Below, piece by piece: positions 56,560 to 64,000 of a stretch of DNA of 64,000 nt (positions within the stretch are counted from its first letter, which is position 1; every line of letters starts with the position of its first letter). The stretch lies in sequence record MW748999.1. The stretch is one strand, 5' to 3'. Under the pieces are notes generated by a model. The model saw only the letters and a list, made by a program, of their open reading frames with translations, had not been told where the DNA came from and did not search any database. The position numbers and the translations under genes were made by a program. The stretch comes from Escherichia phage vB_EcoM_Skers.

Positions 56560-56718
56560 TCATCGCAGAGCTTCTTCTAGCGCGATCCCAAACCATCCAC
56601 AAACAACGCCCATACAGACAGCTACAAGAAGATTCATTCTCTCTTTAGGGATCATTGCAATCATAACAACAACCATACAGAAAGCCATTACCATTGAAGT
56701 TAACATTTGTTCAACCAT
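56560..56718 (-). CDS. small hydrophobic membrane protein (52 aa)
   Basis: ORF MVEQMLTSMVMAFCMVVVMIAMIP...; its 5' part is duplicated in the artifact at 56906-56978. Confidence 0.3.
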   Translation of the reverse strand: MVEQMLTSMVMAFCMVVVMIAMIPKERMNLLVAVCMGVVCGWFGIALEEALR

Positions 56719-56757
56719 TATCACACCTTTAAAGTCATAGACGCATAAACATTAATG

Positions 56758-57017
56758 GAAGAGCGTCGTGTAGGGTTGGGGGGTCGGGGGGCCAAACAAC
56801 GCCCATACAGACAGCTACAAGAAGATTCATTCTCTCTTTACACAACGAACACAAAACTCTACAGAAATCTAAACACTCAAAGTCTACACGACGCTCTTCC
56901 GATCTCTTTAGGGATCATTGCAATCATAACAACAACCATACAGAAAGCCATTACCATTGAAGTTAACATTTGTTCAACCATTATCACACCTTTAAAGTCA
57001 TAGACGCATAAACATTA
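56758..57017. other. probable assembly artifact: Illumina adapter sequence plus re-duplicated flanking phage sequence
   Basis: GGAAGAGCGTCGTGTAGGG (adapter reverse complement) + poly-G junk, then copy of 56601-56647, then ACACGACGCTCTTCCGATCT (adapter), then second copy of 56643-56757. Confidence 0.8.
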
Positions 57018-57322
57018 ATGCCAGGCCAGTTAGGATCGCAATTATACTCAACATCCCACAAATAAAGCGGTTTAGATGTATCAGCCAAGTTTTTAAAATC
57101 TTCTACCCACATTTCAAGGCTATAGGATGGATAAACTAGGCTATCATATCCGCCGTAACGTTGGCCTACTGGTCGGTCAGTAAAAACTACCTCAAGATCC
57201 GGTAATTCTTTTTCAAGGATAACCGCCAGCGCATAAATCAGACGGTCTTCCTTGTTACGCTGCCGAAGGACCGTTGTCAGTTGGTTTTTCTGGTTCACTA
57301 GCAAGCACCTCCACATTTTCAC
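56984..57322 (-). CDS. hypothetical protein (start uncertain, possibly GTG at ~57298)
   Basis: 112-aa ORF; its 3' end lies in the duplicated segment. Confidence 0.35.
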   Translation of the reverse strand: MKMWRCLLVNQKNQLTTVLRQRNKEDRLIYALAVILEKELPDLEVVFTDRPVGQRYGGYDSLVYPSYSLEMWVEDFKNLADTSKPLYLWDVEYNCDPNWPGINVYASMTLKV

Positions 57323-58745: not shown

Positions 58746-58779
58746 TTACCCCCCCATATCTTCTCGTTTCGATGGGTGT

Positions 58780-58808
58780 ATTATGCTATACACCCTCTCG
58801 TATGTCAA
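58780..58808 (-). promoter_or_regulatory. promoter-hairpin cassette (TTGACA-17-CATAAT inside GGGTGTAT/ATACACCC palindrome)
   Basis: Minus-strand motifs. Confidence 0.45.
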
Positions 58809-58815
58809 CAACTTT

Positions 58816-59756: not shown

Positions 59757-59785
59757 ATTATGCTATAGGAGTGATCTGGTGTCAA
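59757..59785 (-). promoter_or_regulatory. promoter cassette (TTGACA-17-CATAAT)
   Basis: Minus-strand motifs upstream of ORF starting at 59710. Confidence 0.4.
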
Positions 59786-59810
59786 CAACTTTTTTAAAAA
59801 AATTTTAGGC

Positions 59811-59838
59811 AATAAAAAAGCCACTCCGAAGAGTGGCT
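59811..59838 (-). terminator. rho-independent terminator
   Basis: Hairpin AGCCACTCttcgGAGTGGCT followed by U-tract on the minus strand. Confidence 0.55.
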
Positions 59839-59983
59839 TATAGGGAAGGTAGCGAATCTTCCTTGTCTCCAACCTGCTAGCGGCCTAGCAAGTGAATGCT
59901 TTAGCGTACCGGATCGCCCACATACGCTGTAATAAATGCGGCTAGGTGACGTCCAAATCATTCTAACCGCGCTGTCTTTAGTT
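59839..59983 (-). ncRNA. candidate small non-coding RNA (~145-170 nt) between a late-promoter core and a terminator
   Basis: No convincing ORF or SD; several internal inverted repeats (CCTAGC/GCTAGG, GGAAG/CTTCC, TGCTAG/CTAGCA); bounded by TATAAATA and an intrinsic terminator. Confidence 0.25.
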
Positions 59984-60710: not shown

Positions 60711-60953
60711 TCATAGCGTACAAAGCCATTTAAAAGCACCACATAAAGCGAGCAGAATACTAGGTATAAACGAGATCAAAACAAGTTGGCAAAAATCATC
60801 TAAGGTAACACCGGAATAGCTACCTACTGTAACAACACCGATCATCAGACACAGAAAGAAAACAAATGCAATCATAAACAAAGTATTGCTAAACAGTTTA
60901 GTGATCATTAGACACCCCACGACAATCAATTTCAAAAACTTTTTTATCATCAA
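60711..60953 (-). CDS. small hydrophobic membrane protein
   Basis: 80-aa ORF. Confidence 0.3.
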   Translation of the reverse strand: MMIKKFLKLIVVGCLMITKLFSNTLFMIAFVFFLCLMIGVVTVGSYSGVTLDDFCQLVLISFIPSILLALCGAFKWLCTL

Positions 60954-61101
60954 CGAAGCATGTCACAACTGCCTCGTTGACTTCCGCAAATTGTTGTGTT
61001 ACCCACTTAAGGTCAGAGCGAAACAATGTTCTATTAATAACAAATGTTTTACCGCTCTTATCCTTACCCATAAATTTTGCTTTAACCATATCCAATTCCA
61101 T
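60898..61101 (-). CDS. hypothetical small protein
   Basis: 67-aa ORF. Confidence 0.3.
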   Translation of the reverse strand: MELDMVKAKFMGKDKSGKTFVINRTLFRSDLKWVTQQFAEVNEAVVTCFVDDKKVFEIDCRGVSNDH

Positions 61102-61110
61102 ATTATCACC

Positions 61111-61269
61111 TTATTTGCTAATCGCTAAACCCAATCCGAAGAGAGCACCCGATGCTACAGTATACCCGAAAGTTTCAAAGGCAGTAAAGATATCTAAGCC
61201 ACCAGCTAACAGAGTTGCAGTAAACAGAGTACCAGCTACGAACATAAAAGTTTTACCGATAAATTTCAT
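61111..61269 (-). CDS. small hydrophobic membrane protein (52 aa)
   Basis: ORF MKFIGKTFMFVAGTLFTATLLAGG... with GGAGAATCAAA SD; not in track. Confidence 0.3.
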   Translation of the reverse strand: MKFIGKTFMFVAGTLFTATLLAGGLDIFTAFETFGYTVASGALFGLGLAISK

Positions 61270-61335: not shown

Positions 61336-61710
61336 TTAAGAAAATTTTACTTCGTCTACAATGTCTTTCATGACATTGATTTCCATTCCGGTCAGAACAC
61401 GTTGGAACATGTGCTGCACATACGCTTTCAGGTATTCATTTGATGGCTTGCTATCGAAAGTCTTTTTAGTGTAGTAGTCATCACCGAAAGCTACTGTAAT
61501 TACATTTTCGTCGTCGTTCCAAGCGATATAAGCAAATTTGCCGTTATCCCAGAAGCGAGCACTAATTGCTACTTTTGTTGAATCGAATCCTACTTCGCTG
61601 TGAGATTCAAGAACTACTTGCGTGCCAGTTTCTTTATGAATGTAGTAGCGGGATACTAAGTCAAAGTTACGTGTGTAGTGACATTCGAATTTATCTTTAA
61701 ACATCATCAT
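61336..61710 (-). CDS. hypothetical protein (start at MMMFKDK)
   Basis: AGGAGAATCAAA SD before ATG at 61710; track ORF over-extended into the promoter. Confidence 0.4.
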   Translation of the reverse strand: MMMFKDKFECHYTRNFDLVSRYYIHKETGTQVVLESHSEVGFDSTKVAISARFWDNGKFAYIAWNDDENVITVAFGDDYYTKKTFDSKPSNEYLKAYVQHMFQRVLTGMEINVMKDIVDEVKFS

Positions 61711-61747
61711 TTTGATTCTCCTAAGTGTGTTTCGTTTCGATATGTGC

Positions 61748-61776
61748 ATTATGCTATAGTCGTTTATGGTTGTCAA
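61748..61776 (-). promoter_or_regulatory. promoter cassette (TTGACA-17-CATAAT)
   Basis: Same cassette as 36144-36171 and 48303-48331. Confidence 0.45.
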
Positions 61777-61781
61777 CACCT

Positions 61782-61817
61782 AAAAACAAAAAAAAAAACC
61801 CCGAAAAATTTTCGGGG
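61782..61817 (-). terminator. rho-independent terminator
   Basis: Hairpin CCCCGAAAAtTTTTCGGGG with long U-tract on the minus strand. Confidence 0.55.
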
Positions 61818-61824
61818 TATAAAA

Positions 61825-62295
61825 TTACAGTTTGGTCGTCCACTCCAGGTCTAGATCTTCGACATACTCATGAGATCGGACAATCTCTAAATCGAACTCT
61901 AGGTCAGTGCCAAATTTACGCGCACCAACATCATAAGAAAGCGTGATATGCGGTACATATTCAGGATAATCCCACGTCGCGCCTAAAGCAGTTCCGATAT
62001 CGTGTCTGAATTGCATGTAGTCGCTTTCAAATGCCAGCACAAGTGCATTAGTACCGGATTGAGTTTCAAACACTTTCAGATGACACAGAGAGCCTAAGAA
62101 CTTTTCCCCTTCTTCTGGGATAAACGGAACATATACACGAGAATATAAGATAGTGCTATGCAGTTTATCACGAGGAACGGCATTAGGCAGATCGTAGAAC
62201 TCCTGCAATTTTTCAATGCGGTCTAGTGTATCCTCAGTGAATTTAACCGCCGCATATGTACCTTTAACGGATTCTCTAAACGGGGTCATAATCAA
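61825..62295 (-). CDS. 2H-phosphoesterase (LigT-like), positional and motif equivalent of T4 57B/Acb1 anti-CBASS nuclease
   Basis: Two H-x-T/S-x motifs (HSTILYS and HITLSY) with spacing typical of 2H phosphoesterases; lies directly upstream of 57A and gene 1. Confidence 0.55.
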   Translation of the reverse strand: MIMTPFRESVKGTYAAVKFTEDTLDRIEKLQEFYDLPNAVPRDKLHSTILYSRVYVPFIPEEGEKFLGSLCHLKVFETQSGTNALVLAFESDYMQFRHDIGTALGATWDYPEYVPHITLSYDVGARKFGTDLEFDLEIVRSHEYVEDLDLEWTTKL

Positions 62296-62558
62296 GCCTC
62301 CGTGATCAGTTCTACTTCCTCTTTAGCGTCTTCCTCTGCTTCGTCTTTAGGGAGAAGTGCTTTCACTTCTTCGACAATAGCATCAAGGGAAACAGTGCCG
62401 TTTTCGTCTGGCTGAATACCCAGAATGCGTACCAGTTCCATCAATACACGCTCACGATCTTTCAGTTGGCCTTCTAAGAATGCGGCCTTTTCTTGAGTGT
62501 CAAACAGACGTACTTTCAGGACATTAATCATTTGTTCATGCTGATTGGACATATTCAC
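62292..62558 (-). CDS. 57A: tail-fibre assembly chaperone 57A
   Basis: 88-aa coiled-coil protein directly upstream of gene 1. Confidence 0.55.
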   Translation of the reverse strand: MNMSNQHEQMINVLKVRLFDTQEKAAFLEGQLKDRERVLMELVRILGIQPDENGTVSLDAIVEEVKALLPKDEAEEDAKEEVELITEA

Positions 62559-62584
62559 ATCTCCTACTTGTTGATAACTTTTTA

Positions 62585-63241
62585 TTAAATGTTCGCGAGA
62601 ATCGCGCTTTCAAATTCTTCTAATGTACCATTATTTATGATAATGGTTTCACCGTCAATAGGCAAAATTCCTTTTTCGGTGGAGTGAGTCGATACAATAC
62701 CAGTATCACGCTGAATATGCAACACCTTAGCACCCATAGCACGCACGAGAGCAATTTCAATAGGCTGACGCACATCAACCACTACAAAATAACCTTCTTC
62801 ATTTTTGCGCTTCATAAACTCATTCACAAAGAGATTACACCAATAAAGCGGATTGATCAAGTTAACCATTATATCAGTACCGAGAGTGGTTAACATGAGA
62901 CGAATAGACCAGACGTTATTATGTTTTTCGCCAATCTCATTAACGACCTTGTAAATCTCAGCCAGACGATCACAAGTAAAGGAACTACCGCCATACTTCG
63001 AATCTAGCATAAGCAGACACTGAATAAACCACTTATGCGCGGTATAGGTATCAATACCTAGATCGGCTTCTCTGTCACGCCCTAACCCGTCAAAGTCAAG
63101 ATAAGTCAGACCTAAGTCTGGTTGACATTCACATAAGATTTCTTTGATCGGTGCTGCCAGTTGATAACTATGTCCATCAATGATTAACGCGGCAGTGTCT
63201 TTTCCTACTCGCTTTTTACCACAAAGTGCAATCAATTTCAT
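62585..63241 (-). CDS. 1: deoxynucleoside monophosphate kinase
   Basis: MKLIALCGKKRVGKDT P-loop, MGAKVLHIQR and ST.HSTE blocks consistent with T4 gp1. Confidence 0.8.
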   Translation of the reverse strand: MKLIALCGKKRVGKDTAALIIDGHSYQLAAPIKEILCECQPDLGLTYLDFDGLGRDREADLGIDTYTAHKWFIQCLLMLDSKYGGSSFTCDRLAEIYKVVNEIGEKHNNVWSIRLMLTTLGTDIMVNLINPLYWCNLFVNEFMKRKNEEGYFVVVDVRQPIEIALVRAMGAKVLHIQRDTGIVSTHSTEKGILPIDGETIIINNGTLEEFESAILANI

Positions 63242-63256
63242 TATATAAGCCTCTTA

Positions 63257-63847
63257 TTACTTTCTAAAAGCAGGGTGCATAGCTTTAATACCTTCCACCC
63301 TCTGACGATCCGCCGCCTGAATTGCTGGGCGAGGAACGATCAGTTGACCATCACGTTCAATGCTCATTGTTTTAAAGGGAAGAATTGCAGTACACACCAG
63401 AGATTCATGCATATCATTGGTGTATGTTAACTCAAGTTCCCCCAATTGTGAACACCAACAACCATAAAAGTTAAAAGTGCACACAATGTTACGTCGTTCG
63501 TTGTCCATCATGTGAACTTGAACGGCTTCCGGCATTGAATCCTTCCACGCAGTGGAGTTACCGTTATTGTAGTCTACTATAGAAAGCATCCATGTGTAAA
63601 GGTTTAGATAGCTTTCCAAATGCTCATCGACAATAAACCGGACTACCAACGGGTCAAACTCCACATGACTAGACGGATAATCAGCGACCGCCAAACCATA
63701 TTGACCAGCAACTTGCTTAGTCGGTGGAATGGTTATAGCCGGAAGTGTAACACCTTGAGCATTTAAAGTAAAGCCTTTTGTTAGTTGTCCATCTGGAATA
63801 TTGATCTGCCAGTTGCTGGGGTTAGCATAGTTAAAGAGATTAGACAT
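63257..63847 (-). CDS. 3: putative tail sheath stabiliser/tail completion protein (gene 3 position)
   Basis: 196-aa ORF immediately after gene 1; synteny only. Confidence 0.45.
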   Translation of the reverse strand: MSNLFNYANPSNWQINIPDGQLTKGFTLNAQGVTLPAITIPPTKQVAGQYGLAVADYPSSHVEFDPLVVRFIVDEHLESYLNLYTWMLSIVDYNNGNSTAWKDSMPEAVQVHMMDNERRNIVCTFNFYGCWCSQLGELELTYTNDMHESLVCTAILPFKTMSIERDGQLIVPRPAIQAADRQRVEGIKAMHPAFRK

Positions 63848-64000
63848 TACTGATTCCTCAAATGAAAATATTTATTAACAATTGTCGCTTTGCGACGTGC
63901 CGGAGGCACTGACTACTTTTTAACCGAAACAAATTTTTATTATTCTAAAGATCTTTCTTCGTTTTGGTTATGTTTTAACCAATAACTATATTTTTATACA

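Follow-up and report, generated by a model that had tools for sequence, protein, structure and literature searches.

A gene at the 57B position of an RB49-type phage sequence is very probably an orthologue of the T4 anti-CBASS gene acb1

The reading frame that closes the 3-1-57A-57B gene block in the window (the whole 64,000-nt stretch of phage DNA analyzed here) is almost certainly the Krischvirus (RB49/JSE-type) orthologue of T4 57B/acb1, and the mechanism of T4 Acb1 offers the best explanation for its function, as every residue known to matter has been kept. The analysis established the integrity of the gene, its family membership, the equivalence of its residues to those of the known enzymes, its synteny, and the purifying selection acting on it. 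Both the gene and its family are already known, the phage lineage that carries it has been sequenced many times, and nothing about the gene as such is new.

The protein was matched by the Pfam profile PF23474 (Acb1) with a score of 174.4 bits, the gathering cut-off being 27 bits, and its residues 9-152 covered positions 1-143 of the 144 in the profile. A PDB-wide phmmer search returned a sole match, Acb1 of Erwinia phage FBB1 (7T26/7T27; E = 1.8e-43, residues 10-153), and BLASTP aligned the protein with T4 57B (NP_049750) over the full length at 47% identity (E = 3e-47). Taken together, these matches bear out the designation of the product as an Acb1-like 2H phosphoesterase in a preliminary description of the region, which had been made from the sequence alone. 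No Acb1 match was obtained with NCBIfam, which is without a corresponding model, or with PADLOC, the scope of which is defence and not anti-defence proteins. Since the AlphaFold2 model computed from the single sequence was of unusably low quality (pLDDT 37.6, pTM 0.37), the fold assignment rests on homology to the solved structure 7T26; we infer a 2H phosphoesterase fold from the FBB1 chain, to which 142 residues align at 53.5% identity with one gap of two residues. That structure (7T26, apo; 7T27, with 3'3'-cGAMP) is FBB1's own, from a phage of a different host genus, whereas the window protein is known by its sequence.

One possible alternative is that the product is a general 2H enzyme acting on RNA ends (a 2'-5' RNA ligase of the LigT type or a 2',3'-cyclic phosphodiesterase), with a role in RNA or tRNA repair and not in the destruction of immune signals. 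The family matched in PHROG (PHROG 755, E = 9.8e-55) is indeed named 'RNA ligase', as are several RefSeq records, and the HxT/HxT chemistry is common to Acb1 and LigT-type enzymes: both have two H-x-T/S-x motifs, the 2H fold (predicted for the window protein from homology to 7T26), and metal-independent cleavage via a 2',3'-cyclic phosphate. Weak Pfam matches to 2_5_RNA_ligase2 (PF13563, 19.4 bits) and LigT_PEase (PF02834, 14.1 bits) point in the same direction, but these generic 2H profiles fall short of their curated thresholds of 27 and 23.3 bits, respectively, compared to 174 bits for Acb1, and the 'RNA ligase' label goes back to an earlier deduction from the 2H fold. A ligand pocket of its own and a C-terminal lid for cyclic oligonucleotides set Acb1 apart from the LigT-type and cellular 2H phosphoesterases (PMC9117128), and the residues that hold the bases of the cyclic dinucleotide, together with the glutamate that reads the adenine, are kept in the window protein. 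Furthermore, the T4 orthologue was found by activity-guided fractionation as a cGAMP-degrading activity, which is abolished when the gene is deleted (PMC9117128). An RNA-end enzyme is thus very improbable and, because only the superfamily motif is held in common with the LigT-type families, the acb1 product is not filed here as an RNA ligase.

The paired H-x-T/S-x motifs noted in the preliminary description are present: the pattern H-x-[ST]-x occurs exactly twice in the protein, as HSTI (residues 44-47) and HITL (residues 114-117). At least two HxS/T were also found in 13% of composition-preserving shuffles of the protein, which is within chance, and the motif pair alone was rejected as proof; it is homology, and not the pair, that makes the observation solid. 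In T4 Acb1 the catalytic tetrad consists of H44/T46/H113/T115, residues Y12, W74, F107, and W147 stack on the bases, E141 contacts the adenine N6, and a C-terminal lid is present (PMC9117128). These published residue numbers fit the T4 57B sequence. An alignment of eight sequences was constructed from the window protein, its counterparts in T4, Mokit (an Acinetobacter phage), MP1 (Morganella), AsFcp_4 (Aeromonas), K571 (Vibrio), and 05F (Klebsiella), and the FBB1 chain, spanning six strabovirus lineages in addition to FBB1. In this alignment the T4 residues map to Y12, H44, T46, F74, Y108, H114, T116, E144, and W150 of the window protein. The two histidine motifs are therefore the catalytic ones of Acb1, as H44/T46 and H114/T116 fall in the columns of the T4 and FBB1 tetrads, and the HxT/HxT tetrad is complete at the positions of T4 H44, T46, H113, and T115. 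The lack of equivalence that the preliminary description had named as grounds for refutation was thus not observed. No variation occurs among the eight homologues at Y12, H44, T46, H114, T116, and E144, and positions 74 and 108 are aromatic in every one of them. All of the ligand-pocket residues, namely the stacking aromatics, the glutamate facing the adenine N6, and the lid tryptophan W150, were kept in the window protein.

Compared to T4 Acb1 (NP_049750.1), the window protein is of nearly the same length (154 versus 152 aa) and shares with it the HxT/HxT tetrad, Y12, the adenine-reading glutamate, and the lid tryptophan. It differs by one additional residue after position 79 and two near position 128, and by F74 in place of W74 and Y108 in place of F107, both still aromatic. 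FBB1 Acb1 is identical to the window protein at all of the named catalytic and stacking positions, F74 and Y108 included. Two variant Acb1 architectures were also seen among the homologues. In the Slopekvirus form (Klebsiella phage vB_KpnM_05F, L006 1459-2082) the protein is 207 aa long, with a C-terminal extension of ∼55 aa and a lysine in place of the lid tryptophan; in Pseudomonas phage psageK9 (L007 52-1854), a 600-aa protein adjoining the terminase contains an Acb1-like segment with 37.6% identity over query residues 38-123.

The coordinates of acb1 and of the features around it are listed in Table 1. An uninterrupted reading frame extends on the minus strand over positions 61825-62295, with its TAA stop at 61825-61827. 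The TTG at 62295 is the mechanical start of this frame only, being the first permissible start after the preceding stop, and it overlaps the TGA stop codon of 57A (62292-62294). Translation most likely begins at the ATG at 62289, judging by the spacing of the GGAGG (7 nt to this ATG versus 1 nt to the TTG) and by the annotation of phage JSE, in which 57B has the same length of 154 aa; the TTG was ruled out as the acb1 start on the same two grounds.

Table 1. Positions of acb1, its sequence motifs, and neighbouring features in the window.
Feature	Position	Strand	Evidence and remarks
acb1 (gene 57B) CDS	61825..62289	-	154 aa plus TAA stop; ATG at 62289 (most likely start)
Shine-Dalgarno GGAGG of acb1	62297..62301	-	Inside the last codons of 57A; read from the sequence
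First 2H motif, H44-S45-T46-I47	62149..62160	-	Codons read; aligned to T4 H44/T46
Second 2H motif, H114-I115-T116-L117	61939..61950	-	Codons read; aligned to T4 H113/T115
Gene 57A (tail-fibre chaperone)	62292..62552	-	PHROG 1002, E = 1.6e-26; Pfam GP57, 27.2 bits
Gene 1 (dNMP kinase), synteny anchor	62585..63241	-	Pfam DNMK, 228.7 bits
Gene 3 (tail completion, sheath stabiliser), synteny anchor	63257..63847	-	PHROG 45, E = 2.3e-43; JSE annotation
Intrinsic terminator	61788..61818	-	6 nt past the acb1 stop; 9-bp G/C stem; terminator scan
Sigma-70-type early promoter, TTGACA-17-CATAAT	61748..61776	-	11/12 consensus; predicted to drive the next gene
125-aa ORFan	61336-61713	-	phrog_15253, function not assigned; found only in 58 Krischvirus records
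52-aa ORFan	61111-61269	-	phrog_16462; hydrophobic look
dmd orthologue	60898..61101	-	PHROG 2102, E = 2.5e-32; JSE annotation dmd; exact start unsure
Macro-domain protein, 151 aa	50626-51081	-	Pfam PF01661, 28.9 bits; phrog_335 'phosphatase'

The genes run in the order 3 > 1 > 57A > 57B on the minus strand, and this order is identical in T4, JSE, Mokit, AsFcp_4, K571, 05F, and MP1, so the 57B position attributed to the gene in the preliminary description was borne out. The same description had placed it upstream of 57A, which holds only in plus-strand coordinates; on the coding strand acb1 lies downstream (3') of 57A. As in T4, it follows 3-1-57A on the same strand, with its start abutting or overlapping the stop of 57A. 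Gene 57A itself begins at an ATG at 62552 with AGGAG 8 nt upstream, and is annotated with 261 nt in JSE. Since its stop codon ends 2 nt ahead of the acb1 ATG and the acb1 Shine-Dalgarno sequence lies inside it, acb1 is probably translationally coupled to 57A; the arrangement also suggests that the two genes are co-transcribed. The T4 late promoter motif TATAAATA was looked for around the operon and is absent from positions 61800-64000, and a sigma-70-like site inside the 3' end of gene 1 (62658-62630) is a consensus match only.

Downstream of acb1, a strong predicted terminator closes the unit; it consists of a 9-bp stem (ACCCCGAAA/TTTCGGGGT) with a 3-nt loop, followed by a T run, and its RNA fold was computed at -13.5 kcal/mol (z = -2.8). 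The early promoter beyond it belongs to a 59-nt repeat that occurs three times (58755, 59732, and 61723). PeSL ('promoter-early stem-loop') cassettes combine a stem-loop with an early promoter, and the type with a G/C stem has been described for RB49 and phi1, in which PeSL elements were reported to mediate modular shuffling (PMC2839356). From their sequence, the terminator and the promoter downstream of acb1 can be read as a cassette of the PeSL type and, because this cassette follows it, acb1 is the gene that closes the conserved core block and borders on a hyperplastic region. Cassettes were seen on the minus strand at 61748-61818, 59757-59839, and 58755-58813, sharing the 59-nt repeat of promoter and 5' leader at 69-81% identity, and G/C stem-loop terminators precede two of the three copies of the repeat.

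Over the 2.6 kb around acb1, the window is 98.9% identical in DNA sequence to Escherichia phage JSE, and 98-99% identical to 58 RB49-like records (genus Krischvirus, family Straboviridae). Krischvirus RB49 encodes an identical product (100%); a protein with at least 99% identity is encoded in 55 phage records, and a homologue in 1475. Compared to JSE, acb1 displays 11 synonymous and no non-synonymous differences, a pattern which indicates purifying selection on the coding sequence. The RB49-type phage vB_EcoM-G2494, which is 98.6% identical over the acb1 region, was among the 57 phages in the lysate screen of Hobbs et al. (PMC9117128). In the main texts searched, nothing was found that couples Acb1 with RB49 or Krischvirus, nor were biochemical or genetic data on precisely this protein found.

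A second alternative is that the Acb1 fold persists in Krischvirus with its activity lost or changed, the protein being a decayed remnant or having shifted to other signals, for example only to the cyclic oligoadenylates of type III CRISPR systems. Two stacking positions, F74 and Y108, do differ from T4, but the same two residues are found in the active, crystallized FBB1 enzyme, and all of the catalytic and ligand-contact residues are present. Under Panoptes pressure acb1 is lost or mutated in some phages (PMC13577387), and a direct assay of the Krischvirus lineage was not found in the literature searched; conversely, the reading frame is intact, a protein with at least 99% identity is present in 55 records, every difference from JSE is synonymous, and all nine further Acb1 homologues assayed by Hobbs et al. 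were active, on both 3'3'-cGAMP and cAAA (PMC9117128). The chance that a lost or altered activity is the correct reading appears to be minute.

The reading preferred here, an Acb1 working as in T4, can be set out on the basis of the family's biochemistry. T4 Acb1 degrades 3'3'-cGAMP, cUA, cAAA, and cAAG and leaves cGG intact; cleavage occurs 3' of adenosine in two metal-independent steps, via a cyclic phosphate, and T4 without acb1 suffers a loss of replication of more than 300-fold against CBASS (PMC9117128). By analogy, the window protein would be a small, metal-independent 2H phosphoesterase which binds 3'-5'-linked cyclic di- and trinucleotides with at least one adenosine (3'3'-cGAMP, cUA, cAAA, and cAAG). 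The ligand would be held in a U-shaped pocket under the C-terminal lid, with Y12, F74, Y108, and W150 stacking on its bases and E144 reading the adenine N6. The tetrad of H44/T46 and H114/T116 would then carry out acid-base catalysis, the 2'-OH attacking the 3'-5' bond located 3' of adenosine by way of a 2',3'-cyclic phosphate intermediate. The linear product would be unable to activate CBASS effectors, and the phage would thereby escape abortive infection. It is on this analogy that the window protein is credited with enzymatic activity, with this range of substrates, and with an anti-CBASS phenotype.

A strategy of removing the cyclic-nucleotide second messenger of the host is also followed by Apyc1 (anti-Pycsar) and Acb2 (an anti-CBASS sponge), both of which are unrelated to the window protein. 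Apyc1 is an enzyme of the metallo-beta-lactamase fold that acts on cyclic mononucleotides, and Acb2 sequesters the signal without cleaving it (PMC10312549). The possession of an Acb1 carries a cost of its own: Panoptes restricts phages which express Acb1, and escapers mutate acb1 (PMC13577387). By extension, the protein would also be a liability to its phage wherever Panoptes is encountered.

In practical terms, the significance of the finding beyond correct annotation is small. The name supported for the product is 'anti-CBASS nuclease Acb1', while many database records still carry 'RNA ligase' or 'hypothetical protein'. If the T4-group phages are taken as a guide, an intact acb1 predicts that RB49-type phages, which find use in phage therapy work, will withstand CBASS systems signalling through adenosine-containing cyclic di- or trinucleotides, and will be vulnerable to Panoptes-type guards fired by the depletion of cA3 (PMC13577387).

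The surroundings of acb1 were also inspected. Its actual near neighbours are 57A, the dNMP kinase gene, two small ORFans, and dmd. The dmd orthologue shares 48% identity with T4 Dmd (E = 8e-21), an antitoxin against RnlA/LsoA; it lies 724 nt downstream of acb1, with the two ORFans, both found in Krischvirus only, in between. The arrangement differs from that in T4, where ∼54 kb separate dmd (20.4 kb) from acb1 (74 kb) and a tRNA cluster and ipI, the downstream neighbour of 57B, come just after it; in the window this place is taken by a Krischvirus-only ORFan, and a scan of the 64,000 nt with ARAGORN found no tRNA genes. Because dmd is so near, acb1 heads a small counter-defence cluster together with it, which is the only mildly new point to emerge.

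The larger of the two ORFans, of 125 aa, has a near-consensus early promoter of its own. It gave no Pfam match above the cut-off (a weak one to Gp30.7 had E = 0.004), no PADLOC match, and only chance-level HLA matches in the PDB. The hydrophobic look of the 52-aa product suggests that it may possibly be a membrane protein. As both genes lie between acb1 and dmd, they could be unrecognized counter-defence genes, part of an anti-defence islet at the PeSL-punctuated hyperplastic edge; drawn from position only, this proposal is a speculative one and more probably wrong than right. The closeness of acb1 and dmd nevertheless marks the two ORFans as reasonable candidates for an anti-defence screen.

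The preliminary description had further located the gene next to candidate ADP-ribosylation machinery, and this part of it did not hold. The larger reading frames beyond ∼48.6 kb were scanned up to the window's end, and no such machinery was found within ∼10 kb of acb1. The nearest candidate is the macro-domain ORF, which is probably part of the ADP-ribosylation-related machinery that was meant; it is situated ∼10.7 kb away, a distance at which the two genes are not adjacent, and many small ORFs lie between them. In addition to this ORF, the scan identified a thymidine kinase, a valyl-tRNA synthetase modifier, an SLT lysozyme-like protein, RegB, an RlaP-type nucleotidyltransferase, a glycyl-radical fragment, an M15 peptidase (annotated as endolysin in JSE), and small ORFans. 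The RlaP-type product is a 232-aa protein (53420-54118, minus strand), matched by the Pfam family RlaP (RNA-repair-pathway nucleotidyltransferase) with 52.6 bits and by phrog_388, and its gene sits between regB and a short ORF with a glycyl-radical domain (54205-54621). Two perfect (100%) direct duplications were also observed, one of 118 nt (56640-56757 and 56903-57020) and one of 48 nt (56600-56647 and 56793-56840); they suggest that small ORFs in the hyperplastic region underwent a recent local duplication, within 56600-57020.
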